A DNA stretch of 55,603 nt, from IMG/VR virus record IMGVR_UViG_3300031772_000046, positions 1-55,603 of that record; one strand, 5' to 3'. The notes beneath the pieces are model-generated. The model saw nothing but the letters and a program-made list of their open reading frames with translations, ran no database searches and was not told the DNA's origin. Positions 14,623-36,546 of this stretch are shown one piece after another (positions within the stretch are counted from its first letter, which is position 1; each line of letters opens with the position of its first letter). The translations under genes and the position numbers were made by a program. Source of the stretch: a virus. Lineage: Duplodnaviria; Caudoviricetes.

Positions 14623-14697
14623 TGGCTGAGGCGGCACGGGTCGAACGTGCGTTGACGGGTTCAAGGCCCGGCGTCCTACCGGCTAGACGACGCCTCA
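14623..14697 (-). tRNA. tRNA-Gln(UUG) with C33
   Basis: U1:A72, G73, encoded CCA, T-loop TTCGACC, anticodon loop CCTTGAA. Confidence 0.9.
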
Positions 14698-17898: not shown

Positions 17899-18695
17899 GC
17901 CGCGCTCTCGGGGGGAATCATCAGCAGATTCGCGCACGATCCCGCCGCAAGTACGGCGTCAAGGTCAATCGGGGTCGGTTCGCCGTCGTCGCTCAGGCCG
18001 TGGAAGGTGGCGCCTCTGTGGCCGAGAACCGTCAGTACGCTGCAGAATTTGCGGTAGTCGTCCTGCGCCATCATGCGATTCACTTCCATGACCACGGCGT
18101 GGATCTTGTCGCGGCACAGGAGGTCGCCAAGACCAAGAAGGGCGTGATACTCGCCGCCCTCGATGTCCAGCTTCAGGAGATCCACCGGCAGGTCGTCGGC
18201 CAGCATCGTGTCGAGGCGGGCGGCGTCAATCTCGGACCCGAAGCTTATGCCGTCGTAGTGCTGCTTGTACTCCTCGCTGTGCCGGTGGATACTGGAGTTG
18301 CCGGGGTAACGACCTGCCGTGTAGAAAGACACGTCCCCATTCTCGGAATACGCCGCCTTCGCCTCCACCCGGCACCACGCGCGCATGTAGTTGAGACTCA
18401 AATTGTCCGCAAGGTACACCGCAAGAGCCGGGTCCGCCTCAATGGCAATGACCTTGCCCGTCTCACCCACCAGATAGCCCGCCAGGACCGAGAAGTAGCC
18501 GACGTGGGCACCAACATCCACCACACGTTGACCCGGAAGAAGCGTGCGCATGAAGTAGCGCGTCAACGGCGGTTCAATGATGCCGTCAAGCGCGAACTGG
18601 GGAGTGATGCTCAAGTCGTCAGCCGGGATGATCATGCGACCACCCCAGACGGGTTTCACAAGAAGTCTGCCGTCGCCGATGTAGAGAGCGTTCAT
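17895..18695 (-). CDS. FkbM-family methyltransferase
   Basis: VVDVGAHVGYF, AIEA, LLKLDIEGGE. Confidence 0.93.
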   Translation of the reverse strand: MNALYIGDGRLLVKPVWGGRMIIPADDLSITPQFALDGIIEPPLTRYFMRTLLPGQRVVDVGAHVGYFSVLAGYLVGETGKVIAIEADPALAVYLADNLSLNYMRAWCRVEAKAAYSENGDVSFYTAGRYPGNSSIHRHSEEYKQHYDGISFGSEIDAARLDTMLADDLPVDLLKLDIEGGEYHALLGLGDLLCRDKIHAVVMEVNRMMAQDDYRKFCSVLTVLGHRGATFHGLSDDGEPTPIDLDAVLAAGSCANLLMIPPESAA

Positions 18696-18840
18696 AGAAG
18701 ACTCACCGCCGTCTGCCACATGCAGGCCGCTCCTATTCCGCCGCACAGGATGCGATACCAGGGCGTCCACTTCCGATTGAAGGCGCGCTCCAGACACAAG
18801 ATCCCAAGAACCGCCAGCACTGCAATCACGAGAAGCGCCA

Positions 18841-19456: not shown

Positions 19457-19530
19457 TGGTGGAGCGGCGCGGACTTGAACCGCGATCTCCTGGGTGCAGA
19501 CCAGGAATTCTCCCGTTGAACTACCGTCCC
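19457..19530 (-). tRNA. tRNA-Ala(UGC) with C33
   Basis: G3:U70, A73, CCA, loop TCTGCAC on a perfect CCTGG/CCAGG stem. Confidence 0.9.
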
Positions 19531-19535
19531 AAAGA

Positions 19536-19610
19536 TGGTGGGCGCGGGAGGAATCGAACCTCTATCGCGCGGCTTAAAGGGCCGCCGCTCTACCGTTGAG
19601 CTACGCGTCC
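19536..19610 (-). tRNA. tRNA-Lys(UUU) with C33
   Basis: Cloverleaf; loop CCTTTAA on a perfect GCGGC/GCCGC stem; A73; CCA. Confidence 0.92.
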
Positions 19611-21193
19611 GCTTCCTGCGACCCAAACAACGGCAACTCGGCACCCATGCGTTGCCTGATGATGTCGCAGTAGTGCGCATCCTTCTCGATGCCTACGGCG
19701 TTGAAACCCTCGCGCACAGCGGCAAGAAGGGTTGTCCCCGAACCGGCGAAGGGATCAAGGATGGTGCCGTTGGGCGGGCAGACAAGGCGACAGAGCCAGC
19801 GCATCAGGGCCAGGGGCTTGACTGTTGGGTGGTCGTTACCCTCGCCACGCTCAGACTGCGATGCCTTGGCGCAGTATCTAAATCGCTCTACGCAGTCCCG
19901 CCCCCCAAGAACCGCGTTCATCAGCATGGAGTCGGATATGACACTTTCTGCAAAGCCATCGATACTCGAAAGGGTGTGAATAGTCCCCATGGTGCTTATC
20001 AGCCTGTGGACTACCACATATCTCACAGGGGTGTCGTTCAACATTTCCGTGATTATGCGCCGCAACTCGGCAACACACTCTCGCCCTGTATTCCGCATCT
20101 GCGTGATACCGTTCCCGTCTCTCTGCTCGTATGCGTTCCCCATGGCGCTCATAAAACGTGCCAGCGGTGCGTTTGCGGCTTGCCCCTCTGGCAATTGCGC
20201 GACTACTACAAGATCTAGAACAGAATCGGCGAATCCCCTTGACTGCGTTGAATCCATTGCCACAGAATTCGCAGTATTTGACCAACTCTCGTCTCCCCCC
20301 TTCGTAATCTTGAAGAAACGAGAAGCGCCGCCCTTGCTGGGTCCGAAGTGTGCGCCGTCTGGTTTACCTCGAAACTGCCCGTAGATGCCGTGTCGCCCGG
20401 CTATGGCGGGCGCCGTCGGGCTTCTTGTCACGGCACCGCTGTTCAGGACACCGCTCTGCTTATCCAACATCGCAGCCGCCTCTTCGTCCAAGACGACGTT
20501 CGCGGGCCAGCGGCCATCGGTTGGGCGCGGGTGTTCACGGTTATCAAGTTGGCCCCCGTATCCGCATGAGGGATCGCCCTTCCAGCCACCCTTGCCGAAC
20601 AATCGGCACTCCTCGATGTTCATCGCCCCACATCCCCACTTGGCGATGTTCTGCGCATACGTGCCGTCAAGGGGCTTCTGCGCCAGGATAATGTCCTCAT
20701 GGGCGGGTTTCAGGGCCGTGCCCCACCCGTGCCAGTCGGGCATCTCTGCGGCAATGTTGTGGTTCTTGGGGAAGCCTGTCCCGTACAGCCAGCACAGTTT
20801 GTCCCTGACGATGAACCCCGCATCCTCAATCCCACAGGTAAGGCGATGAACCGTGCGCGTCCCGCCGAAGGCAAGGAGGTAGGCGCCGGGCTTCATCACG
20901 CGCAGAAGTTCGCGTGACCATGAGGTACACCACACTTGGTACGGATGTCCCGCCTCGTATGCGTTGACCGCATGGCGGACGTAGGCTCCCTTGCTGGCAT
21001 CGCGCAAATCAGCTTCACGTCGCGTGCGTGCTTCCGCGTGGGTATTGGCGGACTTAAAGCTGTCCCATTCCTGGCCCATGAACTCCAAGCCGTAGGGGGG
21101 ATCGGTGACAACGGCTTCGATGCTGTTGGCTGGCATGGCGCGCATTAGGTCCAGGCAGTCGCCTTGGTGCAGGGTCCATGGCATAGAAGTCAC
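19601..21193 (-). CDS. N6A/N4C DNA methyltransferase (beta class) with 145-codon in-frame insertion
   Basis: TDPPY, HPTVKP, LDPFAGSGTT; usual SRFF|YCAKAS segment is split by the insert. Confidence 0.93.
   Translation of the reverse strand: MTSMPWTLHQGDCLDLMRAMPANSIEAVVTDPPYGLEFMGQEWDSFKSANTHAEARTRREADLRDASKGAYVRHAVNAYEAGHPYQVWCTSWSRELLRVMKPGAYLLAFGGTRTVHRLTCGIEDAGFIVRDKLCWLYGTGFPKNHNIAAEMPDWHGWGTALKPAHEDIILAQKPLDGTYAQNIAKWGCGAMNIEECRLFGKGGWKGDPSCGYGGQLDNREHPRPTDGRWPANVVLDEEAAAMLDKQSGVLNSGAVTRSPTAPAIAGRHGIYGQFRGKPDGAHFGPSKGGASRFFKITKGGDESWSNTANSVAMDSTQSRGFADSVLDLVVVAQLPEGQAANAPLARFMSAMGNAYEQRDGNGITQMRNTGRECVAELRRIITEMLNDTPVRYVVVHRLISTMGTIHTLSSIDGFAESVISDSMLMNAVLGGRDCVERFRYCAKASQSERGEGNDHPTVKPLALMRWLCRLVCPPNGTILDPFAGSGTTLLAAVREGFNAVGIEKDAHYCDIIRQRMGAELPLFGSQEADA
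19878..20285 (-). CDS. HNH-type zinc-finger endonuclease nested in an alternate frame of the MTase
   Basis: CEFC..FCSRSC; CEIC..HHGDYSHP..WLCRKCH; own GGGGGAG RBS plus TTG start. Confidence 0.85.
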   Translation of the reverse strand: MVKYCEFCGNGFNAVKGIRRFCSRSCSSRAIARGASRKRTAGTFYERHGERIRAERRERYHADAEYRARVCCRVAAHNHGNVERHPCEICGSPQADKHHGDYSHPFEYRWLCRKCHIRLHADERGSWGAGLRRAI

Positions 21194-22340: not shown

Positions 22341-22836
22341 TCCCCCATCTGGAGTCAATGACTTTGGCGACTCGGGCAAGGTCCGCTTGCCTCTGGGCCA
22401 AGGCACCCGCCAAGGCATCGTCCACGGCCTGCCGCTCGGCCTTACGCCTCGCGTCGAACCGGGGCTGGTACTCCGCCATCATCTGTCGGATGATACCCCA
22501 CCACGGCCCGTTGTCTGTGTAGTTGATGCCCACGCCGTCACACGTTACGGTGGGACGCTGCCAAGAAGACTGGTAGACCGGGAGGTTGTAATGACTCCCT
22601 AGAAGAACGTTACCGTAACAGTAAACTTGGTAGATTGGATCGCCGCCACATCTTTGAAGAACGTTAGCATTGAAGCGCCAGCAAAGCGACAGGCCGCCAT
22701 ATTGGAGGTGAAGAAAGCCGTCCGGCGACAAGAACAAGGACTGGCGATCATCATGAACAATATCGCCTACGCCGAGAAGATAGAGGCCCGCCCCGAAGCA
22801 TCGCAACCTCTGCCCTTCTTCGTCTGTCAGAAGCAT
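22318..22836 (-). CDS. Hypothetical protein
   Basis: 172-aa ORF with RBS. Confidence 0.7.
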   Translation of the reverse strand: MLLTDEEGQRLRCFGAGLYLLGVGDIVHDDRQSLFLSPDGFLHLQYGGLSLCWRFNANVLQRCGGDPIYQVYCYGNVLLGSHYNLPVYQSSWQRPTVTCDGVGINYTDNGPWWGIIRQMMAEYQPRFDARRKAERQAVDDALAGALAQRQADLARVAKVIDSRWGNGDAARD

Positions 22837-22864
22837 CGCCGTCAGACCCCCTCTGTCCTTGGTT

Positions 22865-23050
22865 CTAAAGGAACCGCACGACCGAGAATGCGCTCCAGAG
22901 GACCACTCCCACCATCAGGACAAGACCCAGCCAACAGCCGGGGTCGGTCCATCGGTTGCGCCACATGTCCCGACCCATCCAGATTGAAGCACCTAGAGCG
23001 ACGGTCCCGAGCGCGCTCCAAAGGCAACACATCACGTGGTTGAAGGTCAT
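22865..23050 (-). CDS. Two-TM small membrane protein
   Basis: Hydrophobic pattern; GAGGGG RBS. Confidence 0.6.
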   Translation of the reverse strand: MTFNHVMCCLWSALGTVALGASIWMGRDMWRNRWTDPGCWLGLVLMVGVVLWSAFSVVRFL

Positions 23051-23542
23051 GCGGATACCCCCTCACTTTAGTCACGCTTCAGAAAATGGCGGGTCGTTCC
23101 CGGTGGGAGAGAAACTCGCAAGGGCGGGAACGATAGCACAAATGAGGGCGTGGCGCTGTTGGGCAAAGACACCGTTGTGTTCGCATATTAAAACCCGTGG
23201 GTGGGTGGAACGAAGCCCCCGGCACGCGACCGTACCCGGTCCCTGGGTCGGGGATCGGGGTGTTGGACGATCCCCCATGATCGGCCAGCGTATCATCGAA
23301 GGATTTCATCTGACAGTGCGCACGCGCCAGCCAGTACCGCTGTTGCCCGCCAGGATCACCCAGCACGGCCCTGCAAGGCCCGCTATCGCCCGCCAGCACC
23401 TGCGGCATGGCTGTGTCCGGCGCGTCCAACACCTCCGACCTGCCAATTAGGGCCTGGAAAGTCCCAGGACGTGACAGATAAATAACTCGGCCTGGGCGGG
23501 AGCAAACCCGCGTGGCTATTGAGTTTGAGGGCATTTTAGGGT

Positions 23543-23570
23543 ACGTCCCTTAATGAGTATTATGTAACCT
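23543..23570. other. dif: dif-like Xer recombination site
   Basis: 11-6-11 layout ACGTCCCTTAA-TGAGTA-TTATGTAACCT; right arm close to the conserved XerD arm TTATGTNAANT. Confidence 0.88.
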
Positions 23571-23616
23571 AGGGGGTGAGAATGGTCCTGCTGGACGCGA
23601 CAGACGCGGGGATCGT

Positions 23617-23922
23617 CTATGATCCTGGTCGCGGTCCTCTACTCAATGCACGCGCCGCTTCCTGGGCCATCCTCTCGACGCAGACCGCCGCGCACGTTTC
23701 GCCCTCCGCCGTCGGCGCATCCCCCGCTATAACGGTGCGGCCCCTAGCAACCAGCGCCTCCTCCTCGGCGCTCAGGGGTATCTGTCTCGCGTCGCCCTGC
23801 CATTGCTGCCCCGTGACCGCCCCCTGCAGTAGCCCGCAGTCTCCATCCCTCCATGCCATGCATCTGCCGCCCCAGCACCTGACACCCTGGCCGCGTCCTC
23901 TGATCGGGCACAGACTCCCCAT
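23617..23922 (-). CDS. Cys-rich hypothetical protein (paralog of 50586..50759)
   Basis: LCPIR...C.G.RCMAW...C. Confidence 0.6.
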   Translation of the reverse strand: MGSLCPIRGRGQGVRCWGGRCMAWRDGDCGLLQGAVTGQQWQGDARQIPLSAEEEALVARGRTVIAGDAPTAEGETCAAVCVERMAQEAARALSRGPRPGS

Positions 23923-24030
23923 ACCTCATTCCCCCCTGTCCTTCCCTGGTCTTCTCGACACGATCCGACATTCCGCGTCCTGCGTGCATTTGCGCGATCA
24001 GATAACCCGGCCCCCACAGGATCGAGGCTA

Positions 24031-24059
24031 TTGACATCCTCATCGGGGTATGATAGGAT
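24031..24059 (+). promoter_or_regulatory. Sigma-A/70 promoter of the rightward small-gene island
   Basis: TTGACA-17nt-TAGGAT with extended TG. Confidence 0.8.
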
Positions 24060-24262
24060 CATGGCAGACAGAGACGCTGCGGGCGCCACAGGGCGCCGGG
24101 CGACAGGGGGACGGACACAATGACGCACTGCACCATATGCCCGCTGAGTCAGGGATGTATCGACTATACCCCCGGCGCGCCGTGCTTCGCACCCGGCGAG
24201 CTCCTCAACGAGGACGACACCCGCGACAACTGAACTGAGCGCCATCATCCATCACGAGGAGG

Positions 24263-24499
24263 ATGCAGACCATGAACGACAGCCAAGTGGCCGAACTCAG
24301 GAACATCGTCGAGAAAGAAGTCGCCCGCGCGTCACAGACCGCGGACGCGGCGCACGTCCTGATCCACAAAGCCCCCGACGCACTGTCGCACGACGCCTAC
24401 ATATACAATTGGGGCGTCCAGGTCGGGCAAGAGACACAGGCCATGTTCTTGCTGACGGTCTTGGATCGTATCACGCGCGAAGCGCCGCAGACCGCTTGA
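24263..24499 (+). CDS. Hypothetical early protein
   Basis: GAGGAGG RBS. Confidence 0.7.
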   Translation: MQTMNDSQVAELRNIVEKEVARASQTADAAHVLIHKAPDALSHDAYIYNWGVQVGQETQAMFLLTVLDRITREAPQTA

Positions 24500-24501
24500 C
24501 A

Positions 24502-24572
24502 GCCGAAACCCCCGTCCACGCGGGCGGGGAGTCCGCCGGGAGTGGTCGCCCGGCGCTGATGAGGTAGACCAC
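24502..24572 (+). ncRNA. Type II hammerhead ribozyme with loop I pseudoknot
   Basis: GCC-GAAA-stem III-GTC^-stem I (CGCCGGG/CCCGGCG)-CTGATGA-GGT; loop GTGGTC pairs with 3' GACCAC; predicted cut after 24533. Confidence 0.95.
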
Positions 24573-24591
24573 ATACGAGGAGGGGTTGAGC

Positions 24592-24879
24592 ATGGATCGC
24601 GCCACTCTCAGCCAGCACGTGGCACAATGCATCGACCGCGCCAAGCGGGATCGGCGCGCATACGGCGACACCCACGACGGCGCCCAGGCAGGATACCGCG
24701 AGGCAGCCAGTCTGCTGGATACTCCGACCGACGACCTCAGTGCATCCCTGAGCTATCATATCCAGTCCGCCGACCGCGCCTACACCCGGGCGCTGGCCGG
24801 GACCGGCCCCGTCGCCTACTGCTCGGGGCGGCTCATTGCTCTGCAGCACGTACTGGCGCAATTGCCTTTGCCCGCTTGA
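24592..24879 (+). CDS. Hypothetical early protein
   Basis: GAGGAGG RBS after the ribozyme. Confidence 0.7.
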   Translation: MDRATLSQHVAQCIDRAKRDRRAYGDTHDGAQAGYREAASLLDTPTDDLSASLSYHIQSADRAYTRALAGTGPVAYCSGRLIALQHVLAQLPLPA

Positions 24880-24897
24880 CAAGCCGGGAACGGCGAA

Positions 24898-24926
24898 TCC
24901 GATGATCCGCCCACGGGCGGGGAGGA
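24898..24926 (+). ncRNA. Kink-turn element 1
   Basis: TCC-GAT-GA-TCCGCC-loop-GGCGGG-GA-GGA. Confidence 0.75.
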
Positions 24927-24958
24927 CGCGGGATACCATCATGGAGGAGGGACGCTGG

Positions 24959-25249
24959 ATGACGCAGTACAGGTGGCGGCCCCGGGGGCAAAGGCAGTAC
25001 AGCCGGGCGGAGAGCATCCCTGGAATCGCCACACTCAAGCGCCAGAACGCGATCAAGACCCCGGTCTATCTGGCACTACGCCGGGCCGGTCTAGAGGACA
25101 AGGCCGAGGAGTTCTTGCGCCGTGCCCGTGATCTCATTGCCCTACCGCTGGCAGAGTATCGGCGCGAGGTGACAGCTATGGCGCGAGAGTACTGCGCGGG
25201 CGACATAGACCTGCTGTGCGACGTGGCCGCCGCCATCGACCCGGCCTGA
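24959..25249 (+). CDS. Hypothetical protein (paralog of 29425..29637)
   Basis: ALRRAGLEDKAEEF. Confidence 0.7.
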   Translation: MTQYRWRPRGQRQYSRAESIPGIATLKRQNAIKTPVYLALRRAGLEDKAEEFLRRARDLIALPLAEYRREVTAMAREYCAGDIDLLCDVAAAIDPA

Positions 25250-25290
25250 CTGAGCATCCCCGCCCTATGGCGGAGAGGAGGTATCGACGA

Positions 25291-25479
25291 ATGGATATTG
25301 TCTGGTCACGGACGTGCCCCGACGGCACCACCCCAAATTACTGTCATATGAGCGACGGACAGCACAACGACAGCTGCCTCGCATGTCGGGGAGTGCGCCT
25401 GCTCGTCCCCGGTGAATGGGAGGTCAACTGTGACGGGCGCTGGGTGCCCGCCACGCTCCGCCCCAGCGATCAGCCCTGA
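25291..25479 (+). CDS. Small Cys-rich protein
   Basis: GAGGAGG RBS. Confidence 0.65.
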   Translation: MDIVWSRTCPDGTTPNYCHMSDGQHNDSCLACRGVRLLVPGEWEVNCDGRWVPATLRPSDQP

Positions 25480-25486
25480 CGTTCCC

Positions 25487-25513
25487 GCGCCGATGATGCG
25501 ACGGCGGAGGCGC
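25487..25513 (+). ncRNA. Kink-turn element 2
   Basis: GCGCC-GAT-GA-TGC-GACG-GCG-GA-GGCGC. Confidence 0.85.
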
Positions 25514-25538
25514 ACAACAGACTGAGGGGGTGTCGGCG

Positions 25539-25691
25539 ATGAGCGACCAGCAATGCGAGTCCTGCGATCACTTCCGCAGCGGCGGCGACATGGACGATCC
25601 CTGGATCGCGTGCGCGCGACTGGTGCCGGAGGCCGACTGGCCCGATCCTGATAACCCCGGCGCCACCTGCGCGTCGTGGGCGGCCCGTTGA
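25539..25691 (+). CDS. 50-aa Cys-rich protein (not in ORF track)
   Basis: MSDQQCESCDHF...CASWAAR; GAGGGGG RBS. Confidence 0.7.
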   Translation: MSDQQCESCDHFRSGGDMDDPWIACARLVPEADWPDPDNPGATCASWAAR

Positions 25692-25698
25692 CGTTCCC

Positions 25699-25727
25699 GC
25701 GCCCGATGACCCCCGTGGTGAGGGCGC
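25699..25727 (+). ncRNA. Kink-turn element 3
   Basis: GCGCCC-GAT-GA-CCC-CCGT-GGT-GA-GGGCGC. Confidence 0.85.
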
Positions 25728-25807
25728 ACGAAGCCAGCGGCTAACTGGCGCGCGAAGTCCTGGCGCCGCCCCACACGGGGCTGCTGGAGGCGGAGGAGGT
25801 AACTGAG

Positions 25808-26146
25808 ATGTACATCCCGCCCGGTCGGCCACCCTCCCCACGAGTCCTCGCCATGATCGACCGTGAGGTGAGGGATCGCATCAATACGCAACTGCGCGAG
25901 GAGTACGGCATAGACCCTGAGCGCGAGGTACTGATCCTGGCCGTTAAAATGTGTGACGGCAGTATCGAGTGGCGCGCGGAGGGCGCGACCTACCCCTGGC
26001 GGGCTGAGTTGACGCGCGCCGGGTTCAGGTGGGACCGCAAGCGCGGCTTCTGGACCAATTGGCCGCAGGGCTGCTATTCGTTTTCGCGCCGCCCCGCCCT
26101 TGAGGCCCTGGCCAATGTCCCGCATGTGGTAAAGGAGGCGTCCTAG
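25808..26146 (+). CDS. DUF5710-like domain protein
   Basis: GATYPWRAELTRAGFRWD...W. Confidence 0.6.
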   Translation: MYIPPGRPPSPRVLAMIDREVRDRINTQLREEYGIDPEREVLILAVKMCDGSIEWRAEGATYPWRAELTRAGFRWDRKRGFWTNWPQGCYSFSRRPALEALANVPHVVKEAS

Positions 26147-26359
26147 ATGGCCATCCAATGTTTCATGTGCCCTCTCAATGATGGGTACTACCTCCGGCGG
26201 GACGACACGATCCGGCGCATCTGCAACGCAAGGTGGCCCGGCGGATGGAGCGGGGCGCGCATACGGAAAATCACAGACGATCCCGGCATGGTCTGCCCCT
26301 GGGGCGACCATCCTCCTGTGGCGCAGGAGCCTCAGGGCCTCGCAGCGAAGGGGTGGTGA
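26147..26359 (+). CDS. Small Cys-rich protein
   Basis: AAGGAGG RBS; CxxC. Confidence 0.65.
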   Translation: MAIQCFMCPLNDGYYLRRDDTIRRICNARWPGGWSGARIRKITDDPGMVCPWGDHPPVAQEPQGLAAKGW

Positions 26360-26471
26360 CAATGCAATGGACGTTCTGCGGCGACCCCGATCCGCGCGAG
26401 GTGGAGATGTGGTTGGACGCCCTGACCGGAGCGATAGACTAGCCCCCACGGGGGGCAGGGAGGTGCCTGGA

Positions 26472-26945
26472 GTGGAGGAGCAGGATAAGCAGGCCCGCGT
26501 GTTAGCCCGGGAGGCCGCCGCCGCGATCAATCTCAAGACGCGGGCGGCCGAGTCGATCACCGGCGAGGAGACGTACTACGTCCTGAGGGACGACGCGCCC
26601 GCGTGGGTGCGTGAGCTGGTCCGCGAGGCCAACGCCGAGGGCGACGATTACCGCTACGAGTACATCTACGACGCTCTGGAAGCCCTGGCCGATGCAACCG
26701 ACGACCCCGATCTGGACGACTTGAGCTGGTACATTGGGCCGGACGCATACCACGGCCGGCTACTGCGCTGGCTGGGCAGCGACCCCGCCCGCATCCAGTA
26801 CGTCGATGATGCGATCAAGGAGGGCCGCGGCGACAGCGTCATGGACGACATCGGCGCCGGGCAGGTGGCCGAGAAGCGGGGGGTCTTTGATAGCGTCCTT
26901 CAGTCTCTTCGCGCCCGCGCCAAGTCTGAGCCCAAGAACGAGTAA
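26472..26945 (+). CDS. Acidic helical protein, candidate Ocr-like DNA mimic
   Basis: Very D/E-rich; located in the early island. Confidence 0.45.
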   Translation: MEEQDKQARVLAREAAAAINLKTRAAESITGEETYYVLRDDAPAWVRELVREANAEGDDYRYEYIYDALEALADATDDPDLDDLSWYIGPDAYHGRLLRWLGSDPARIQYVDDAIKEGRGDSVMDDIGAGQVAEKRGVFDSVLQSLRARAKSEPKNE

Positions 26946-26965
26946 GCCCCCACAGGGGGCGGGAG

Positions 26966-27184
26966 GTGTCTGCTGTGAACAAGAGCGAGGCCGAGAACCT
27001 GAGCGCGCGCATCGTCGAGGAGGATCCCCGGTGCCACGTTGACGGTCTGCGGTCAGAGAGTGGCGGCTACAGCATCGATGTCGTTGACACTCGCACCGGC
27101 TACCAGTTCGTGGTCGCCGACCCCGCAGATTGGGATGAGCGCGTTGCAGAAGCCCGGCGGTACGACCAGATCCTCAACGGTTGA
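26966..27184 (+). CDS. Hypothetical protein
   Basis: GGAGG RBS (start may be GTG at 26975). Confidence 0.65.
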   Translation: MSAVNKSEAENLSARIVEEDPRCHVDGLRSESGGYSIDVVDTRTGYQFVVADPADWDERVAEARRYDQILNG

Positions 27185-27228
27185 GGCGTGCAGTAACCGT
27201 CCCAAATCTGCATCGGGAGGTGTCGAGG

Positions 27229-27756
27229 ATGGCCTACGCGACCCTCGGCCTATGCCCAGCGCCCGACGGCCCGAGCCGACCATGCGTCAAGATCCACGAC
27301 TGGCAGGGGCTGCGCCACGAGTTCGCCTCTGCCGGGTGGCGGATCGACGGCGGCGACTGTTTCAAGGCGACGAAGGACCGTTACGATTTCGCCGGTCTCG
27401 CGGGCATCATGCGCGAGGCGCACGCCCTGGGCGCCAGGTGGGTGCTCTACCCCGAGGCGACCAAATGGAGACAGCTGATCAGCCAGAACCTCGGCTGGTG
27501 CGGGACCGACAAGCCGTCCGCCCTCGAGGCTGGGGCCATGGAGCGCGCTGCCGTGCAGTACGCCCTGATCTACGCGCTGGGCGTCAAGGTCGATTTTGAG
27601 CACGAGGTACTCGCCGCGTTCGCGGGTTTGCAACTCAGCGTCCTGCCCGACCCGGCCCACGGGGCGAACGACCCCGATCAGGAGCCGGCGGGCCCGATGG
27701 TCGTGACGATCAGGCCGGACATCCTGACGGGGCCGGCGCCGGAGCCCCAGCCTTAG
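27229..27756 (+). CDS. Hypothetical protein
   Basis: GGAGGTG RBS before MAYATL. Confidence 0.7.
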   Translation: MAYATLGLCPAPDGPSRPCVKIHDWQGLRHEFASAGWRIDGGDCFKATKDRYDFAGLAGIMREAHALGARWVLYPEATKWRQLISQNLGWCGTDKPSALEAGAMERAAVQYALIYALGVKVDFEHEVLAAFAGLQLSVLPDPAHGANDPDQEPAGPMVVTIRPDILTGPAPEPQP

Positions 27757-27769
27757 ACCGTGCCGTTCC

Positions 27770-27808
27770 GCCGATGATCCGGCGCGCCAGACCCCGCGCC
27801 GGGGAGGC
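27770..27808 (+). ncRNA. Kink-turn element 4
   Basis: GCC-GAT-GA-TCCGGCGCG-loop-CGCGCCGGG-GA-GGC. Confidence 0.85.
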
Positions 27809-27853
27809 CAACTAGGGGACTGCGGCTACCTCAAAATCAGCGCCGCAGAGGGA

Positions 27854-28192
27854 GTGCTGAACATGACCCAGTACGGCGTCGATGACCGCAGCAACGGTGT
27901 CCCGGAGTCCGAGTGCCTGTTCGTCGTGATGGACGCGGGCGAGGAGTGCATCGATGTGTTCCCCACGCGCGCGGAGGCCATCGCGTGCATCGAGAAGGAC
28001 CGCGCAAAGGACCACCCGTACATCGCGGACCCGATCCTGCTTGTGGTGCCCCGCTGGGGACGCACCATCGACCGCGACGCTCTGACCGACGACGACGGCC
28101 GGTACACTGCCGTCCTCTGGCCCGACGGCAAGGCGTCTGAGGTGTGGGCCGACGATGAGCACGACGCCGCCGAGCACGGCTTCAGGGCCTGA
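27854..28192 (+). CDS. Acidic hypothetical protein
   Basis: ORF between k-turn elements. Confidence 0.7.
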   Translation: MLNMTQYGVDDRSNGVPESECLFVVMDAGEECIDVFPTRAEAIACIEKDRAKDHPYIADPILLVVPRWGRTIDRDALTDDDGRYTAVLWPDGKASEVWADDEHDAAEHGFRA

Positions 28193-28200
28193 CCCGTCCC

Positions 28201-28235
28201 GCCCGATGACCCCGCCTCCCCCAGCGGGCGAGGGC
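28201..28235 (+). ncRNA. Kink-turn element 5
   Basis: GCCC-GAT-GA-CCCCGC-loop-GCGGGC-GA-GGGC. Confidence 0.85.
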
Positions 28236-28290
28236 TAAGAGGGGACTGCGGCGGCTCAACTATACTGCCGCCGACAGGGAGGACGAGAAG

Positions 28291-28803
28291 ATGGCGCCCG
28301 ATGACATTGACCGGCTCTGGCGTCTCATTGATAACTGCCGCATCGACGCCGAGAACGAGGTTGGCGATGACTGCCTTGTGAGGGATTTTGACTGGCACAA
28401 CACGTTTCTGGCTACGGCGGCGGCGCTGGCCGATCATTATCTCGCCGGGGCCGACTGGTGCCGCCACGCGCAACTGATCACACGCGCGTGGGGCGCGCTC
28501 GGTAACGCCTACGCCGTGTCCCGGGATACGCCCGTCGAAACGGGCATGTGGTGGGATGCGGGCGAGGACGGGCATGAGTTCCCCGTTGTGATCACGGAGA
28601 CTGTGTTCAAACACTTCTATGTCTCTGATTTTCTGCCTACTCGGCCACGCGCGGAGACGTTCGGCGGATGGCTGCTGGCACTTCAAGGTGTCCTGGGTGT
28701 GTCAGCTATGCCGCTAGACTTCGAGGAAGGCTGGCGCCGTTCCATGATGTCTGTGCTCGCGCCGCTCCTGTGTGAATTGCGCGACGCAGGGAGGGTGGAC
28801 TAA
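28291..28803 (+). CDS. Hypothetical protein
   Basis: GGAGG RBS. Confidence 0.75.
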   Translation: MAPDDIDRLWRLIDNCRIDAENEVGDDCLVRDFDWHNTFLATAAALADHYLAGADWCRHAQLITRAWGALGNAYAVSRDTPVETGMWWDAGEDGHEFPVVITETVFKHFYVSDFLPTRPRAETFGGWLLALQGVLGVSAMPLDFEEGWRRSMMSVLAPLLCELRDAGRVD

Positions 28804-28910
28804 TGTTCCTGGGCCCTCCCTTCCTCACGGCGGGGAGGCCACAAACCGCCAGTCACGGGGCGCGAAGTCCTGGCCCCGGCCTTACGAGGTCTGGCGGAGG
28901 CGGAGAGGAG

Positions 28911-29255
28911 ATGAATGCGATGTCGCCTGATGTCACAGACGCAGAACACCGGCGCCAACAGCGGCGCGATCAAGAGGGCCGATACACGCCGTATTCCGCC
29001 ACCGTCCCACGCGCTCTCCTGGAGGCGGCGATTGACGGGTGGCTACATACTGGTGGCTTGGCCGCGCCCCACAGTCACTGCCCAATAGCGCGGTGCGGAT
29101 TCGAGCCGCGCCCACCCTGTCCTTGCGCCGACTGCGGCGCGGAGCAGGCCAACTGCGACGACAACCCGTGCAGCTTCGGGGACTACTGCAACCGAGAGCG
29201 GGCGCGCGAGTGTGCGGTTGCCGCATTGGTCCAACGGTGCGGAGAGGGGGACTGA
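28911..29255 (+). CDS. Cys-rich hypothetical protein
   Basis: GAGGAG RBS; many Cys. Confidence 0.65.
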   Translation: MNAMSPDVTDAEHRRQQRRDQEGRYTPYSATVPRALLEAAIDGWLHTGGLAAPHSHCPIARCGFEPRPPCPCADCGAEQANCDDNPCSFGDYCNRERARECAVAALVQRCGEGD

Positions 29256-29424
29256 GCATCATGCCCGCTGTCACGCGCTACCTCGACTGCACAGTCACGC
29301 TGTACGACAATCGCCAGATCAGCGTCAATGCGGACAGCATCGTGTTTTTTGCAGAGGTGGATGAGCACACAATGGAGGGGCTGCTCCGCCATCTCCCCGA
29401 CAACGCGGCCCCGAGAGAAGAGGT

Positions 29425-29637
29425 GTGACCGTGGATACAGCCACAAAGCCTGTTGTGCGCCTTGACGGTGCGCCCCGCAACGCCGTCGCCATCATATACC
29501 GTGTGCGCCGTGCGTTGCAGAAGGCGGGACTGGCAGACAAGGCCGCCGAGTTCGAGGCGGAGGGCAAGGAGCACATCGACGATGACGATCTGGATGAGGT
29601 TCTGGGTCTTGCCTTCGACTACTGTGAGGTGGAGTAA
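29425..29637 (+). CDS. Small conserved phage protein
   Basis: KPVVRLDG..NAVAII.RVRRALQKAG. Confidence 0.75.
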   Translation: MTVDTATKPVVRLDGAPRNAVAIIYRVRRALQKAGLADKAAEFEAEGKEHIDDDDLDEVLGLAFDYCEVE

Positions 29638-29646
29638 GCCCAACCC

Positions 29647-29688
29647 GCGCCGTGACCGATGATGCCCGCTGAGCGGAGGTCGCGGCGC
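29647..29688 (+). ncRNA. Kink-turn element 6
   Basis: 11-bp C-stem GCGCCGTGACC/GGTCGCGGCGC; GAT bulge; tandem G.A pairs. Confidence 0.88.
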
Positions 29689-29704
29689 AAATGAAGGAGG
29701 TGCG

Positions 29705-29956
29705 GTGATGAGCAGGACCATCAAGGGCTACGCCGAGTTTGAGACGGATCACGAGGATTGGGATTTCGTGGTCGCGCCCGAGAACAAGGGCGATTGCCCG
29801 GCCCACGACAAGTACGGTCTTGAGGTGGGTCACGGCACGTGTGTTCGACACTACCAGACCTGCCCCCACTACGGCGGTGGTCTGATTCAACACGACCGCG
29901 ACATGGACTTCGGCGAGGTCGCCATTACGTGCAAGCACGGGGAGGCTACCCCATGA
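29705..29956 (+). CDS. Cys-rich protein, MxRxIxG...TC family
   Basis: MSRTIKG...CPHYGG...ITCKH. Confidence 0.7.
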   Translation: MMSRTIKGYAEFETDHEDWDFVVAPENKGDCPAHDKYGLEVGHGTCVRHYQTCPHYGGGLIQHDRDMDFGEVAITCKHGEATP

Positions 29957-30120
29957 CCCGCGATGAGCTGGTGGTCGAGTTGGAGAAGCTGGCCGCAACG
30001 TGGGCGCCTAGGGCCGACCCCGGCAACGACTACTCCTCCTACGGAGAGGGCGTCGCCCACGGGTACAACCGCTGCCTAGGTAATCTGGAAACGCTGATCG
30101 CCAAGGCGAAGGAGGCGTGA
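29953..30120 (+). CDS. Hypothetical protein
   Basis: ATGA-coupled start MTRDEL. Confidence 0.65.
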   Translation: MTRDELVVELEKLAATWAPRADPGNDYSSYGEGVAHGYNRCLGNLETLIAKAKEA

Positions 30121-30123
30121 ACG

Positions 30124-30318
30124 ATGCCCAGATTCCGCCTGACGGTCACCGGCGAGGTCACTACCCGTAAGCGCGACTACCTCGACGGCGCCACGCCCGA
30201 GGACATGTTGAACGTCGAGCTCCAGCAGTTGCGCGACGACCCGGCGGCGTATCTCGACTACTTCGGCGACACCCTCAAAATCGAGGGGGTTATCCTGGAA
30301 TCCAGCGAGGAGGCGTGA
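30124..30318 (+). CDS. Acidic hypothetical protein
   Basis: AGGAGG RBS. Confidence 0.7.
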   Translation: MPRFRLTVTGEVTTRKRDYLDGATPEDMLNVELQQLRDDPAAYLDYFGDTLKIEGVILESSEEA

Positions 30319-30321
30319 GCC

Positions 30322-30537
30322 GTGGACATCAAGGAGGCTGTTGCCAGGTTGCGCGCGGAGGCCGCCTCGCATGAACGGGGCGGCACGATCAGTCTGCTGG
30401 CGCTGCGGGAGATCAAGCACATTGGCGAGGCCGATAAGGTCATGGCGCTTGCCCAGGGCATCCTGACCGCCCGCCAAGGGCGCGACCTGTTGATTCTGAT
30501 GGCAGACATGCTGGAGAAGGAGGCGTCCAAGCCATGA
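30322..30537 (+). CDS. Hypothetical protein
   Basis: GAGGAGG RBS. Confidence 0.7.
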   Translation: MDIKEAVARLRAEAASHERGGTISLLALREIKHIGEADKVMALAQGILTARQGRDLLILMADMLEKEASKP

Positions 30538-30875
30538 GGCCGAAGTTGCCGCTCAACGCCGAGGTGTTCTCGAATTACCGCCATTGGTGTTCTGTGCGGG
30601 ACGCTGACAACAACCATCTCTTCTGCGTGCGCAGCGACGGCAAGACCGACGTACCCGCCGCCGAGTACGCCGCCTTCGTCGTCGCGGCGTGCAACATGGC
30701 CGAGAAGGTGGAGGCGCTGGCGAAGGACTGGGCGTACCGCGCCGAGGCGTGCGAGGACACGGCGACCGTCTCGGCGCAGATGGGCGGCGGTCTCGTTGAC
30801 ATCGCCACTACTCGCGCCAAGGATCTCCGCGAAGGCGCCGCCGCCCTCCGCGACATCCTCAAGGAGGTGGCCTGA
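30534..30875 (+). CDS. Hypothetical protein
   Basis: ATGA coupling. Confidence 0.7.
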   Translation: MRPKLPLNAEVFSNYRHWCSVRDADNNHLFCVRSDGKTDVPAAEYAAFVVAACNMAEKVEALAKDWAYRAEACEDTATVSAQMGGGLVDIATTRAKDLREGAAALRDILKEVA

Positions 30876-30876
30876 C

Positions 30877-31188
30877 ATGCTAGATCCACGCGGGCCGCAC
30901 AAACCGCACAAACCGCACCGACTGATCCCGCCATTCCCCGACTGGTTCACGACCGGGGACGCCGAACGCTGGCTGAAACTGTCGCCAGTCAGACTCGGCG
31001 ACGGCGCGAGGGCGGGGCGCGTGCCCTTCTTGAACCCGGCGCGGGCGTTCGGTAGCACCATCCCATACTACTTCAGCGCGGAGACCTTGATCGCGTTCTG
31101 GCGCGAACGACATGGGCTTGGCCCCGAGTGTCAGCCGCCCCCGATGCCGCCCGACTTGGCGGCGAGAATCGAGGCGGCGAAGAAGTAA
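30877..31188 (+). CDS. Excisionase/MerR-like HTH protein
   Basis: FTTGDAERWLKLSP...ARAGRVP. Confidence 0.55.
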   Translation: MLDPRGPHKPHKPHRLIPPFPDWFTTGDAERWLKLSPVRLGDGARAGRVPFLNPARAFGSTIPYYFSAETLIAFWRERHGLGPECQPPPMPPDLAARIEAAKK

Positions 31189-31191
31189 CGC

Positions 31192-31224
31192 GAGGCCCCC
31201 GGCGAGGTTCTGTCGGGGGCTTTG
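31192..31224. terminator. Hairpin terminator between convergent operons
   Basis: GGCCCCCGGCG...TGTCGGGGGCTTT. Confidence 0.7.
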
Positions 31225-31230
31225 CCGTGT

Positions 31231-31779
31231 CTATTGGCTACACGGCCAGTACGCTACACAGTCATGCACCGTGGTTTGGATGCGGGAATACTCTCGCCCG
31301 CCGGCCAAGTTGCCCTGCCACTTCTCCGCGAACGCCTCCACCCTGCGGATGATCATGTCCGCCTCGGCTTGCGCCTCATCCTTGGCGGGACCGGGATCCT
31401 TGGCGGCGGCTATTGCGTCGCGCAGGTCGGCGACAGACCATTGGCGGTATCGCGTGCTGCTGTCGGGTAGGTGCTCCTCGCCACCATGGACCGCCAAGTG
31501 AAGCCACATAGACGGGTCTTTCGTACACGCGCAGATCCTGTGGATCTCCCAGGACATGTCAGCGGCCCGCGTCTCAACCGGGAACGCCTTCGCCGTCTTG
31601 ATCAGGACGCGAACCCAGTTTGCGGAACAGCCAAGCTCAGAGGCGGCGGCGCGGTCAAACTTCTCATCGCCCTGATAGACTTCCTTGGCGAGGGCCAGGA
31701 GGTCGCCTATCTCCCAGTCGGCGTCCCAACCGTCCTCAAAGTGATCGCGGACGTGGCTCATGAACTCCTCGAAGGTCAC
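31231..31779 (-). CDS. Hypothetical helical DNA-associated protein
   Basis: WEIGDLL...MSWEIH...WSVADLRDAI. Confidence 0.75.
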   Translation of the reverse strand: MTFEEFMSHVRDHFEDGWDADWEIGDLLALAKEVYQGDEKFDRAAASELGCSANWVRVLIKTAKAFPVETRAADMSWEIHRICACTKDPSMWLHLAVHGGEEHLPDSSTRYRQWSVADLRDAIAAAKDPGPAKDEAQAEADMIIRRVEAFAEKWQGNLAGGREYSRIQTTVHDCVAYWPCSQ

Positions 31780-32144
31780 TCAAACAGCCCCCTCTGTGGC
31801 TTGATCTCGAACCCGTCCCACTTGCTCTTCTTGCGCACGTCCAATGTGCCCGCCTTGAACGCCTTCAGCCGCTGTTGGTACAGGGGCGGCAGGATGCGCG
31901 CCAACGATTCTTTGCTCATGCCGTGCGCTACCGTGTGGCAACTGGCGCAAAGCGGTACTCTGTTCTCCAGCATGTCCCCGCCACCGGCCCCGCGTGTCAG
32001 CAGCCAATGGTGGTCTGTCTTGGCGCGTTGCCCACAGACAGCACAGAAGAGCGAGGAGGGTTCGACGTGTTCCTGCGGTTCTGCGTGTAGGCGCGCACGG
32101 CGGCGAAGGGGGGTGGTGGACCTAAGCGGGGTGCGGCGGATCAT
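31776..32144 (-). CDS. HNH endonuclease
   Basis: CAVC..DHH..RGAGG...N..PLCASCH...H. Confidence 0.9.
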   Translation of the reverse strand: MIRRTPLRSTTPLRRRARLHAEPQEHVEPSSLFCAVCGQRAKTDHHWLLTRGAGGGDMLENRVPLCASCHTVAHGMSKESLARILPPLYQQRLKAFKAGTLDVRKKSKWDGFEIKPQRGLFE

Positions 32145-32154
32145 GTGTGTATCC

Positions 32155-32312
32155 CCAAACTCAATCGGCTTTCGCCGTCATATTCGACGGGCCGGGTACG
32201 AGGTTGGCGCCTGACCCGGCCCGTCTGAGGAGGTTTGAGCGTACGGAAACTTGTGCCCCCGGTGACCTTGCAATCCTTGAGTATCCAGCTTCCCTGGGCC
32301 GGGGGCAAACTT
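32155..32312 (-). ncRNA. Structured non-coding region (two long hairpins)
   Basis: GACGGGCCGGGT/ACCCGGCCCGTC and TGCCCCCGG/CCGGGGGCA stems. Confidence 0.5.
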
Positions 32313-32321
32313 ACGCGGGCT

Positions 32322-32391
32322 TGGGGCCGGCGGGGGAGTAGTACCCCATATCTCCGTTGATCAGACGGCGCTCTAGTTGAGTTACGCCGGC
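32322..32391 (-). pseudogene. Degenerate tRNA-like element (GAU/Ile-like loop)
   Basis: GCCGGCG/CGCCGGC acceptor plus CCA, short D-loop, CTGATCA loop, non-canonical T-loop TACTACT. Confidence 0.6.
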
Positions 32392-32441
32392 CCGCACGGC
32401 ACCCTGACTTTATTCAGGCCACCTGCCCGCCAATGGATCCG

Positions 32442-32669
32442 CTAGCCCTCAGTCGGGGCCTTTGTCGTCATGTAGTCCCACAGGCAATCCATGCAGTACG
32501 CGTATCCATCCTCACGGCTACTTTGTCTGGCCTCGCCGCCACAGTCGGGGCACTTGCCGCCAACAGGGGGCTTCCTGATGCCAAACTTCTGCAACATGGG
32601 CATCATTGCGCGCCGTGCGTGGTCAAACGATGGATCCTCGCGCAGTTCGCGCCACTCTTCCGGCGTCAT
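32442..32669 (-). CDS. Zinc-ribbon protein
   Basis: CPDC...CMDC. Confidence 0.7.
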   Translation of the reverse strand: MTPEEWRELREDPSFDHARRAMMPMLQKFGIRKPPVGGKCPDCGGEARQSSREDGYAYCMDCLWDYMTTKAPTEG

Positions 32670-36136: not shown

Positions 36137-36546
36137 GCGGAAGCCTCCTCAAGCAGCGACTGATACTCCTTCATGGCCGCAATCCCCACCAGAACACGGG
36201 GCACCGCGTCGTATCGCTTGTGAACGTCCAGGCTCACGATGCAGGAGTCGTCGCGGTAGATCACGCCGAGAAGGGCGTCCTCGACCGCCTTGATGAGGTT
36301 AGAACAGTCGGGCCGTCCCGTTGGGTACTGCTTCTTCTTCGACTTCGGCGGGCTTGAGTAGAAGACCGCCACTACCGCCAGGGGTTCATCCAGGGGCACT
36401 TCAGGCCGATGCTTCAGGGCCTCTTCCCTGATGCACAGGCGCCATGCCGCCGTGTTGGGGGGTGTGTACGGCCTACCCCCGCGCGTTCCCGAGTGACGCG
36501 CCCGCGCCTCCGCTACCGCCGTGCCGTAGACGGTGAAGGAGATCAT
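36133..36546 (-). CDS. rusA: RusA-family Holliday junction resolvase
   Basis: RPDCSNLIKAVEDAL.GVIYRDD. Confidence 0.95.
   Translation of the reverse strand: MISFTVYGTAVAEARARHSGTRGGRPYTPPNTAAWRLCIREEALKHRPEVPLDEPLAVVAVFYSSPPKSKKKQYPTGRPDCSNLIKAVEDALLGVIYRDDSCIVSLDVHKRYDAVPRVLVGIAAMKEYQSLLEEASA

Follow-up and report, generated by a model that had tools for sequence, protein, structure and literature searches.

Six intergenic hairpins with a predicted kink-turn core in the small-gene block of a tailed phage

Introduction

Kink-turns (k-turns) are well known in ribosomal RNA, riboswitches, small nucleolar RNAs and a few orphan bacterial RNAs. In the account given in PMC8191799, a standard k-turn is a bulge of three nucleotides with G:A and A:G pairs after it, and its folding in metal ions is favoured by a C:G pair at -1b:-1n and by C at 3b or G at 3n, and disfavoured by a Watson-Crick pair at 3b:3n. 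According to the same source, the internal loop of drum RNA (Rfam RF02958) is a k-turn of this kind, able to fold with Mg2+ and, in vitro, to bind L7Ae of A. fulgidus; drum is one motif of the phage-rich set of Weinberg et al. (2017), where drum RNAs are described as being followed by rho-independent terminators. Here we analyse the IMG/VR virus record IMGVR_UViG_3300031772_000046 (Duplodnaviria; Caudoviricetes), a linear contig of 55,603 nucleotides (55.6 kb) with an estimated completeness of 60%, whose whole length we call the window, and describe in it six free-standing hairpins, probably of k-turn type, that lie between small phage genes.

The closest structural counterparts are simple k-turns of the H. 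marismortui Kt-7 type, drum included. With these the six elements have in common the three-nucleotide bulge, the tandem G:A and A:G pairs, the C:G pair at -1b:-1n and a non-Watson-Crick combination at 3b:3n, as well as the GA at loop positions L1-L2 that PMC8191799 gives for Kt-7 and drum. Kt-7, however, is a junction inside a large folded RNA and has A:G at 3b:3n, whereas the elements described here are stand-alone hairpins with a loop-closed non-canonical (NC) helix, six in what would be one mRNA, with U:G, C:U or C:C at 3b:3n and a kink that is predicted from sequence.

Three systems with structured repeats between genes resemble the locus in its layout. In prophages, clustered hammerhead ribozymes flank single genes (Perreault et al. 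2011, PMC3088659); as in the clusters described there, structured RNAs occupy successive intergenic slots of what would be a long phage transcript, gene identity is not constant, and in the present locus the first slot holds a true type II hammerhead. In T4-type phages, small non-essential ORFan genes are separated by the intergenic repeats called PeSL, and it is through recombination between these repeats that genes are inserted, deleted and replaced (Arbiol et al. 2010, PMC2839356). Repeated intergenic stem-loops between small ORFans, and gene changes bounded by the repeats, are met in our locus as well, but a PeSL is in that account a strong sigma-70 promoter with a terminator stem-loop, neither of which was matched at the elements, and the conserved part here is the k-turn core. 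Integron attC arrays likewise comprise promoterless small open reading frames on one strand, each with an imperfect palindrome behind it whose structure is better conserved than its sequence, with variable cassette content; here, in contrast, an integron integrase is missing and the elements fit an RNA motif. What we take to be the attC core consensus is not present in the elements, cores and order being different.

Results

Six elements in the intergenic slots of one gene block

A preliminary description of this DNA had reported six intergenic hairpins of k-turn type. A descriptor scan for a canonical (C) stem of at least 3 base pairs (bp), GAT, GA, an NC hairpin of at least 2 bp, GA and the closing C-stem confirmed their number and positions. 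It returned exactly six elements with the core, all on the plus strand and all in the order C-stem/GAU/GA/hairpin/GA/C-stem; their first C-stem base follows the preceding stop codon by 18, 7, 7, 13, 8 and 9 nucleotides (nt) in copies 1 to 6, and the next start codon lies 17-81 nt downstream. In the following list, NC pair counts take in the U.G at 3b:3n where present.

24898-24926, plus strand: predicted k-turn hairpin, copy 1; 3 C-stem and 6 NC pairs; C-stem UCC/GGA, loop GAU, G.A/A.G, 3b:3n U:G, NC stem CCGCC/GGCGG
25487-25513, plus strand: predicted k-turn hairpin, copy 2; 5 C-stem and 3 NC pairs; C-stem GCGCC/GGCGC, 3b:3n U:G, NC stem GC/GC
25699-25727, plus strand: predicted k-turn hairpin, copy 3; 6 C-stem and 2 NC pairs; C-stem GCGCCC/GGGCGC, 3b:3n C:U, NC stem CC/GG
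27770-27808, plus strand: predicted k-turn hairpin, copy 4; 3 C-stem and 9 NC pairs; C-stem GCC/GGC, 3b:3n U:G, 8-bp NC stem; orthologue at 120-155 of contig L211
28201-28235, plus strand: predicted k-turn hairpin, copy 5; 4 C-stem and 5 NC pairs; C-stem GCCC/GGGC, 3b:3n C:C, NC stem CCCGC/GCGGG; orthologue at 530-561 of contig L211
29647-29688, plus strand: predicted k-turn hairpin, copy 6; 11 C-stem and 3 NC pairs; 11-bp C-stem with one U.G, 3b:3n U:G, NC stem GC/GC

Such an accumulation is not expected by chance. The CC...GG core occurs six times on the plus strand of 24001-30500, compared to a mean of 0.024 and a maximum of 1 in 500 dinucleotide shuffles, and seven times genome-wide on both strands, compared to 0.36 (maximum 3) in 200 shuffles. 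The seventh match (36622-36656, minus strand), which lies inside coding sequence, namely that for the conserved C-terminus of a DNA methylase, we regard as chance. The plain pattern CCGATGA-N5-35-GAGG is found 10 times in the window versus 1.99 +/- 1.47, a number reached in none of 100 shuffles. When the descriptor is relaxed by dropping the CC/GG requirement, 11 matches stand against 5.99 +/- 2.55, which is not unusual, so that the signal resides in the full core together with its position. The flanking plus-strand genes show a GC content at codon positions in the order GC3 > GC1 > GC2, the coding signature typical of GC-rich genomes, and one of them has a 66%-identical orthologue with the same stop codon; the elements are therefore intergenic.

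Fit to the k-turn definition

Judged by their letters, all six copies display every defining feature of a k-turn, as the preliminary description had maintained. GAU, followed by GA and opposed by GA, is present in all six and in both orthologues from the related contig L211; -1b:-1n is C:G in 6/6 copies, and in the eight rows comprising copies and orthologues positions -1 and -2 are always C:G, while position -3 is always paired, by four pair types. At 3b:3n, four copies have U:G, one has C:U and one C:C, each copy thereby having G at 3n or C at 3b; the definition as excerpted from PMC8191799 is silent on U:G counting as non-Watson-Crick at this position. The published rules predict protein-free folding in Mg2+ for all six copies, and since they do, a protein partner would not be required. 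From this we infer a kinked fold of the elements. The loop GAU is constant in 8/8 rows though the neighbouring stems have fully turned over; because the excerpted definition (PMC8191799) sets no condition on loop letters, folding alone may not need this constancy. The target motif of L7Ae, YbxF and YlxQ would be matched by sequence, but a six-frame search of the record (~60% complete) with PF01248 returned nothing at E<=10, in keeping with an earlier remark that the window holds no L7Ae gene. L7Ae/15.5K proteins favour U at loop position L3, a preference with which the U of the elements at this position would agree.

Evidence for a conserved structure

The further suggestion that structure rather than sequence is conserved stood up to closer analysis, including the covariance modelling that the preliminary description had put forward as a check. 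The CC-GAUGA...GA-GG core is constant in all six copies and in the two L211 orthologues, and the helices vary in sequence and length and are still paired. Because MAFFT was unable to align the six copies structurally, covariance model R1 was built from the four that did align; searching with it recovered the two held-out copies, copy 3 at 17.1 bits and copy 5 at 16.5 bits. In a model-guided alignment of eight rows (the six copies and two L211 orthologues) with 5 modelled pairs, 40/40 cells are paired, compared to 80.6% in shuffles, of which 0/500 reach 100%, and to 44-62% with slid partners. Compensating changes are seen at C-stem pair -3 (CG in three rows, GC in three, AU and UA in one each) and at 4b:4n (CG in six, GC in two), and both 4b:4n and 5b:5n are paired in every row; the covariation score of this alignment is 0.486 versus 0.090. 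Model R2, built from the eight rows, assigns 28.3-34.5 bits to the six copies (34.5 to copy 1, 31.1 to copy 2, 30.2 to copy 6) versus a best score of 22.6 bits in 953,203 bases of unrelated GC-rich viral DNA. The turnover of the stems is also evident in pairs of copies with related surroundings: copies 2 and 3 have the same flanks and entirely different NC hairpins, and copies 4 and 5 have a common 3' module and differing stems.

Several candidates were set aside on the way. A match to R2 of 24.5 bits (L122 23-61), obtained in ~200 kb of other viral loci, was attributed to chance; it stands alone and lies at the end of a contig, in what looks like coding sequence. A reading as stop-codon readthrough, or one in which the AUG within GAUGA is used, was rejected on account of in-frame continuations that are short and inconsistent. 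RNase III sites were dropped because four of the six helices are, in our judgement, too short. For mimicry of CRISPR repeats there were weak matches only, to CRISPR-DR9 at copy 5 (11.6 bits) and to CRISPR-DR29 within the hammerhead.

A relative and mosaic breakpoints

L211, a metagenome contig of 1,089 nt, encodes the above-mentioned 66%-identical orthologue, that of gene 27863-28192, and in it this gene is flanked by orthologues of copies 4 and 5. At the nucleotide level the gene is 80.4% identical to its counterpart in the window and the two leaders are 84.5% and 87.1% identical, compared to ~55% (global alignment) outside the block formed by copy 4, the gene and the copy 5 leader, where L211 encodes different proteins; homology begins at the 5' edge of copy 4 and extends as far as the start codon that follows the copy 5 leader. 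The changes in the L211 leaders are found in loops, linkers and two innermost pairs, and none in the k-turn cores or C-stems. The product of the conserved gene is strongly acidic. Two further contigs with weak protein matches (L212 and L213) contain no elements. Two genes after its copy 5 leader, L211 carries a STIV B116-like gene (PF08960; 798-1088), and in another contig, one of 20 viral loci scanned, a type II hammerhead (L217 1647-1720) is located ~800 nt upstream of a B116-like gene; STIV B116-like domains are absent from the record, as are DUF3800 domains.

Breakpoints at element borders were also met in contigs of four other sediment runs, in which the joints 27184>27768 and 27810>28856 coincide with the two borders of copy 4. 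Two more joints, 27785>28831 and 27798>26243, begin inside this copy, so that it is touched by 4/6 of the joints listed, the remaining two being 27530>27635 and 29413>25554; three different upstream neighbours of copy 4 are on record. Among the changes listed, those inside elements are two loop deletions (27787, 28218) and those in linkers are 27811 and 28237-28239, the latter and the deletion at 28218 being the same as in L211. An earlier proposal had been that the repeats could serve as microhomology for RecT-mediated cassette shuffling. The shuffling part of it is supported by the different genes that flank the elements, by the breakpoints at their borders and by the RecT and YqaJ exonuclease encoded in the record, while the involvement of RecT itself is presumed. 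The joint 29413>25554, from a contig of run X5, connects the end of a 55-codon gene (29261-29413) to the start region of gene 25539 (25554-25632), with 6 other letters between; it represents a different gene order in a diverged relative, and there is no k-turn element at this place.

Composition of the leaders

Each intergenic leader of this kind opens with the k-turn hairpin, to which module B or C may be added before the Shine-Dalgarno (SD) sequence and the start codon. Leaders of other composition are found in the same block, and the additional features are as follows.

24501-24573, plus strand: type II hammerhead ribozyme (Rfam RF02276, 58.8 bits versus gathering threshold 37), one gene upstream of the k-turn slots
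25734-25787, plus strand: module C after copy 3 (family D1), a three-way junction of P1, P2 with an 11-nt loop GCGAAGUCCUG and P3 with a tetraloop, before the SD of gene 25808
26443-26456 and 26946-26960, plus strand: minimal-leader hairpins GCCCCCAC(A)GGGGGC, directly after a stop codon and directly before GGGAGGUG and a GTG start
27815-27848, plus strand: module B after copy 4 (family D4), GGGGAC (can pair with GUUCC 27765-27769), hairpin CUGCGGC/GCCGCAG, SD
28241-28277, plus strand: module B after copy 5 (family D4), GGGGAC (can pair with GUCCC 28196-28200), hairpin, SD
28812-28840, plus strand: plain hairpin in the k-turn slot (family D8), whose 3' strand CGGGGAGGCCA is common with copy 4 and whose 5' strand pairs through, with no GAUGA bulge
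28846-28897, plus strand: second copy of module C, following the plain hairpin, before gene 28911

The hammerhead begins 2 nt after the stop codon 24497-24499, and its end precedes the SD of the following gene by 5 nt. Since it thus stands directly behind a stop codon and is followed by SD and start, it occupies what in the following leaders is the k-turn slot. Cleavage is predicted after position 24533. A contig of run X2 contains a variant of this hammerhead with three changes (24515, 24520, 24522), all in the stem III loop.

The hairpin of module B has 7-10 bp and ends at the SD. In L211, the module is conserved at approximately 161-197 and 567-603, with changes confined to the loop. The preliminary description had also proposed an outer helix of GTYCC with a downstream GGGAC. 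Its strands are present at copies 4 and 5, but 2/5 pairs are lost in the L211 orthologue of copy 4, and for this reason the helix is assigned with little confidence. We also noticed complementarity to the SD of the same leader in two loops, the copy 5 NC loop CUCCCCCA and that of the plain hairpin (UUCCUC...).

The two copies of module C have an identical P2 loop, and P1, P2 and P3 differ by compensating changes; the genes behind them are unrelated. The loop contains UCCU, which could pair with the following SD. Module C has no match in Rfam, and exact-loop scans of viral contigs gave no instance: a 15-mer of the loop has more than 120 matching stretches there, each of which was judged on inspection to be coding sequence or a chance match, and a 19-mer including stem letters has 11, all coding. 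A composite pattern of k-turn and module B found one stretch in viral contigs, which is not a hairpin. The plain hairpin at 28812-28840 is a partner of copy 4 in deletion joints. The two minimal-leader hairpins, simple and near-identical, constitute a third, minimal kind of leader in the operon.

Comparison with drum and other RNA families

The elements belong to no characterised Rfam family. At the gathering thresholds of Rfam 15 none of the six was matched, the only RNAs found being the type II hammerhead and tRNAs. The best approach to a known family is that of copy 4 with its module B (27769-27851), which aligns end to end with drum at 23.6 bits versus a gathering threshold of 43 (E = 0.36), the alignment extending over the internal loop of the k-turn and over several conserved letters in the model's second half. 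The other five copies and the two L211 orthologues gave no drum match at E<=10, including copy 5 in a search of 141 nt and the copy 4 orthologue in a search of the 1,089 nt of L211, and a scan of the whole record with the drum model found nothing. Drum and the leaders of copies 4 and 5 are alike in consisting of a long hairpin that bears a k-turn, followed by a second hairpin. The elements are, however, intercistronic in an operon and have no 3' terminator, unlike the free-standing drum RNAs: none of the 8 terminator-like sites in 22500-32500 is located at an element, and no T-tract follows the hairpins. Membership in drum was therefore rejected and the elements are not filed under this family, because copy 5, the copy 4 orthologue and the whole record are without a match, the sub-threshold match in 1/8 elements stands alone, and the terminators are absent. 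No drum was found in 49 bacterial and archaeal genomes, a result of little weight as the scan matched nothing anywhere. A link between drum and STIV B116-like genes was unsupported, with 0 drum matches at the 20 scanned of 35 viral B116-like loci, and the open-access literature that we searched yielded no functional work on drum.

The element core, GAUGA-helix-GA, also resembles hammerhead positions 5-9, helix II and positions 12-13. A hammerhead, however, is a three-way junction with CUGAUGA...GAAA and a UH cleavage site, whereas the elements are two-way junctions, CCGAUGA...GAGG, with C for U4 and G for A14. No hammerhead model matched them at E<=10, and identity with hammerheads was rejected; as two-way junctions without such a match, they would not be expected to cleave themselves.

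The phage and its plus-strand gene block

The record belongs to an uncultured temperate-type tailed phage, whose DNA is present in sediment-metagenome runs. Most of its genes are on the minus strand, among them those for a P22/SU10-type portal, two DNA methylases, RecT, a YqaJ exonuclease and DUF5131. The two separate N6/N4 DNA methylase genes lie at 19601-21193 and 36543-37949, and a gene for an FkbM-type methyltransferase at 17895-18797, all on the minus strand. Further features of the record are:

14626-14697, 19460-19530 and 19539-19610, minus strand: three tRNA genes, two of them adjacent
24031-24059, plus strand: sigma-70-like promoter match TTGACA-17-TAGGAT at the head of the plus-strand block
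53134-54027: XerC/D-like integrase (tyrosine recombinase), 177-180 bits

About 25 small genes are located on the plus strand in one block (~24.0 to 31.2 kb), which holds the six elements and which we infer to be transcribed as one RNA; the label 'early' that this small-gene island had received is an assumption. The promoter match is the only promoter-like site found in 10 kb, none being present at the k-turn elements. As 1.6 such sites are expected, the count is not above chance, and the match is treated as a lead only. Twenty island proteins have no Pfam family and 10 no PHROG. Those encoded by 27229-27756 and 28291-28803 have no relatives among viral contigs; the former has none among metagenome contigs either, and in a set of 5.8 billion proteins the latter forms a singleton, as far as the range of lengths covered by the search goes. 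A blastn comparison of the 6-kb island with GenBank phages gave no match. Assignment of a host was attempted via the best relatives of the terminase and of DUF5131 (28-48% identity, many phyla) and did not lead to a named host: for the terminase, identity does not exceed 32% among viral contigs (3 small loci) or 35% among cultured phages, and the relatives of DUF5131, at 33-48% identity, are scattered across many phyla. The mention of YbxF and YlxQ of Firmicutes in the preliminary description therefore has no basis here.

Discussion

We consider it probable that the six elements are a real, selected RNA structure of k-turn type. For their role, the best overall explanation, to which we give an even chance, is that k-turn-type hairpins act as intercistronic RNA punctuation and double as recombination linkers. 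According to this explanation, the elements would be cis-encoded hairpins, each with a simple, Kt-7- or drum-like k-turn, that head the leaders of one long plus-strand operon and punctuate its polycistronic mRNA. Each cistron would thereby receive a self-contained, sharply bent and Mg2+-stable structure, which may insulate its ribosome-binding site from the upstream gene and, after cutting of the transcript, may cap the cistron end against exonucleases; the hammerhead, expected to cleave itself in the equivalent slot one gene upstream, would be one source of such cuts. The invariant GAU loop would leave room for a bound protein. At the DNA level, the repeated leaders would serve as conserved linkers, the places where related phages swap, acquire or lose gene cassettes, a step that the breakpoints partly document. 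Of the two halves of this explanation, the linker role in cassette exchange is the one towards which the evidence leans. Insulation and end protection are the RNA role that we would favour, by analogy with the job thought to be done by clustered prophage hammerheads and suggested here by the hammerhead slot, but a role as punctuation, insulator and stabiliser is tentative and somewhat less than probable.

A number of observations weigh against this explanation. The evidence for the elements is drawn from sequence alone, and the pair counts come from an alignment that was fitted to the structure, in which 3/5 modelled pairs are invariant and whose rows are paralogues plus two orthologues, not independent lineages; no orthologue pair shows a compensating change. 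The R1 search placed three non-copies, at 23.0, 19.0 and 17.1 bits, between or above the held-out copies. Thermodynamics lends no support, the folding z-scores of the six intergenic regions being -0.29, +1.93, -0.26, -0.50, -1.67 and -1.65. Both stems appear in the minimum free energy fold for 4/6 copies, among them copy 1 and, in an alternative inner register (CCGC/GCGG), copy 6, and they are absent from it in copies 2 and 3; RNAalifold, run on a MAFFT alignment of four leaders, did not recover the k-turn hairpin. The kink is not indispensable for a leader, because the one at 28812-28840 has a plain helix in its place, and neither promoter nor terminator matches in the region are above chance. 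The joints stem from short metagenome contigs at 80% likeness, one with a side of 30 nt, and may originate from other organisms. Finally, over 34 nt of copy 4 (27770-27803), contigs with unrelated flanks match at >=80% in runs X3, X4 and X5, at a depth of 28-68, probably representing a gene of an abundant unrelated organism.

Alternatively, the hairpins could be the operators of one k-turn-binding protein, either a host protein of the L7Ae family (YbxF/YlxQ type) or a phage protein, which would control translation, processing or decay. We hold such a regulon to be unlikely, yet the unvarying GAU loop keeps a bound protein in play as an alternative. In favour of the regulon are the constancy of this loop in 8/8 rows beside stems that have turned over, the location of every element 17-81 nt upstream of the next start codon, and the in vitro binding of L7Ae from A. 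fulgidus to the drum k-turn, whose core is very similar (PMC8191799). These points are countered by the lack of an L7Ae domain at E<=10 in all six frames of the ~60% complete record, by the 20 island proteins without a Pfam family and 10 without a PHROG, by the conformity of all copies with the rules for protein-free folding, and by the gene conserved with copies 4 and 5, as its strongly acidic product does not resemble an RNA-binding protein. It is scarcely to be expected, in turn, that the k-turn and downstream hairpin of copies 4 and 5 are a distant drum RNA, that is, a small structured RNA instead of an mRNA element. What could be held in favour of this are the end-to-end alignment of copy 4 with module B at 23.6 bits, the capacity of the drum k-turn to fold in Mg2+ and bind L7Ae, and the phage-rich set of which drum is reported to be a part (Weinberg et al. 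2017); but that alignment, at E = 0.36, remains far below the gathering threshold of 43 and concerns 1/8 elements, no terminator-like site is found at the elements, and the whole-record scan was empty.

Two further explanations dispense with an RNA function altogether, and both appear quite improbable to us. In one, the elements would be imperfect palindromes that fold as single-stranded or cruciform DNA for a recombinase or transposase, in the manner of attC or of repetitive extragenic palindromic (REP) sequences. The cassette-like layout, in which an imperfect palindrome of conserved core and variable arms stands behind each small same-strand reading frame, would suit this reading, as would the switching of gene presence and absence at element borders and the tyrosine recombinase encoded in the record. 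This enzyme, the only one of its kind in the record, is however XerC/D-like (177-180 bits), scores 65.7 bits against the cut-off of 265 of the integron-integrase model TIGR02249 and is encoded 24 kb away, on which grounds an integron cassette array was rejected. A duplex DNA site would not be explained, because CCGATGA and GAGG are not mutual complements; the U.G pairs in the C-stem of copy 6 and in the outer helix of copy 4 would be A-C mismatches on the other strand, and the core matches the RNA k-turn letter for letter. In the other explanation, the elements would be passive linkers, remnants of a duplicated intergenic spacer that were spread by recombination. One leader with a plain hairpin in place of the k-turn, the evident duplication of flanks in copies 2/3 and 4/5, and the restriction of the known family to one phage lineage point in this direction, but neutral decay would not be the source of a pattern in which 40/40 cells are paired and 11 core letters are fixed although the stems have diverged beyond recognition; in addition, the L211 leaders are better conserved than the gene between them.

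If k-turn punctuation and linkage at the DNA level are indeed combined in these leaders, one could go further and ask whether they represent a new kind of cassette system. In such a system, which we regard as possible but distinctly doubtful, the portable k-turn leader would be an RNA signal that renders any promoterless gene expressible and stable at whatever place in the operon it is inserted, and that is read by a k-turn-binding factor of host or phage, while at the same time providing the DNA homology for swapping by RecT and the exonuclease, and it would amount to a recombinase-free functional counterpart of attC. As a further twist, a hammerhead's helix II domain might have given rise to the k-turn core through two changes in its core letters, and a self-cutting mark would thereby have become one that is read by protein or ions.

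While k-turns as such are familiar, their use between the cistrons of a phage operon, as a free-standing hairpin that is repeated and serves as punctuation, did not come up in the open-access literature that we searched, which contained no k-turn array of a phage; there is nothing like it in Rfam 15. If fold and role are true, the hammerhead arrays around phage genes would have in these elements a counterpart that is read by protein or ions, and the context-insulating RNA parts made by hand in synthetic biology would have a natural example. They would also raise the question of what reads k-turns in bacteria outside the Firmicutes. Above the level of the single leader, they would tie an RNA motif to gene-cassette exchange in hypervariable phage islands, the usual home of anti-defence and host-takeover genes.

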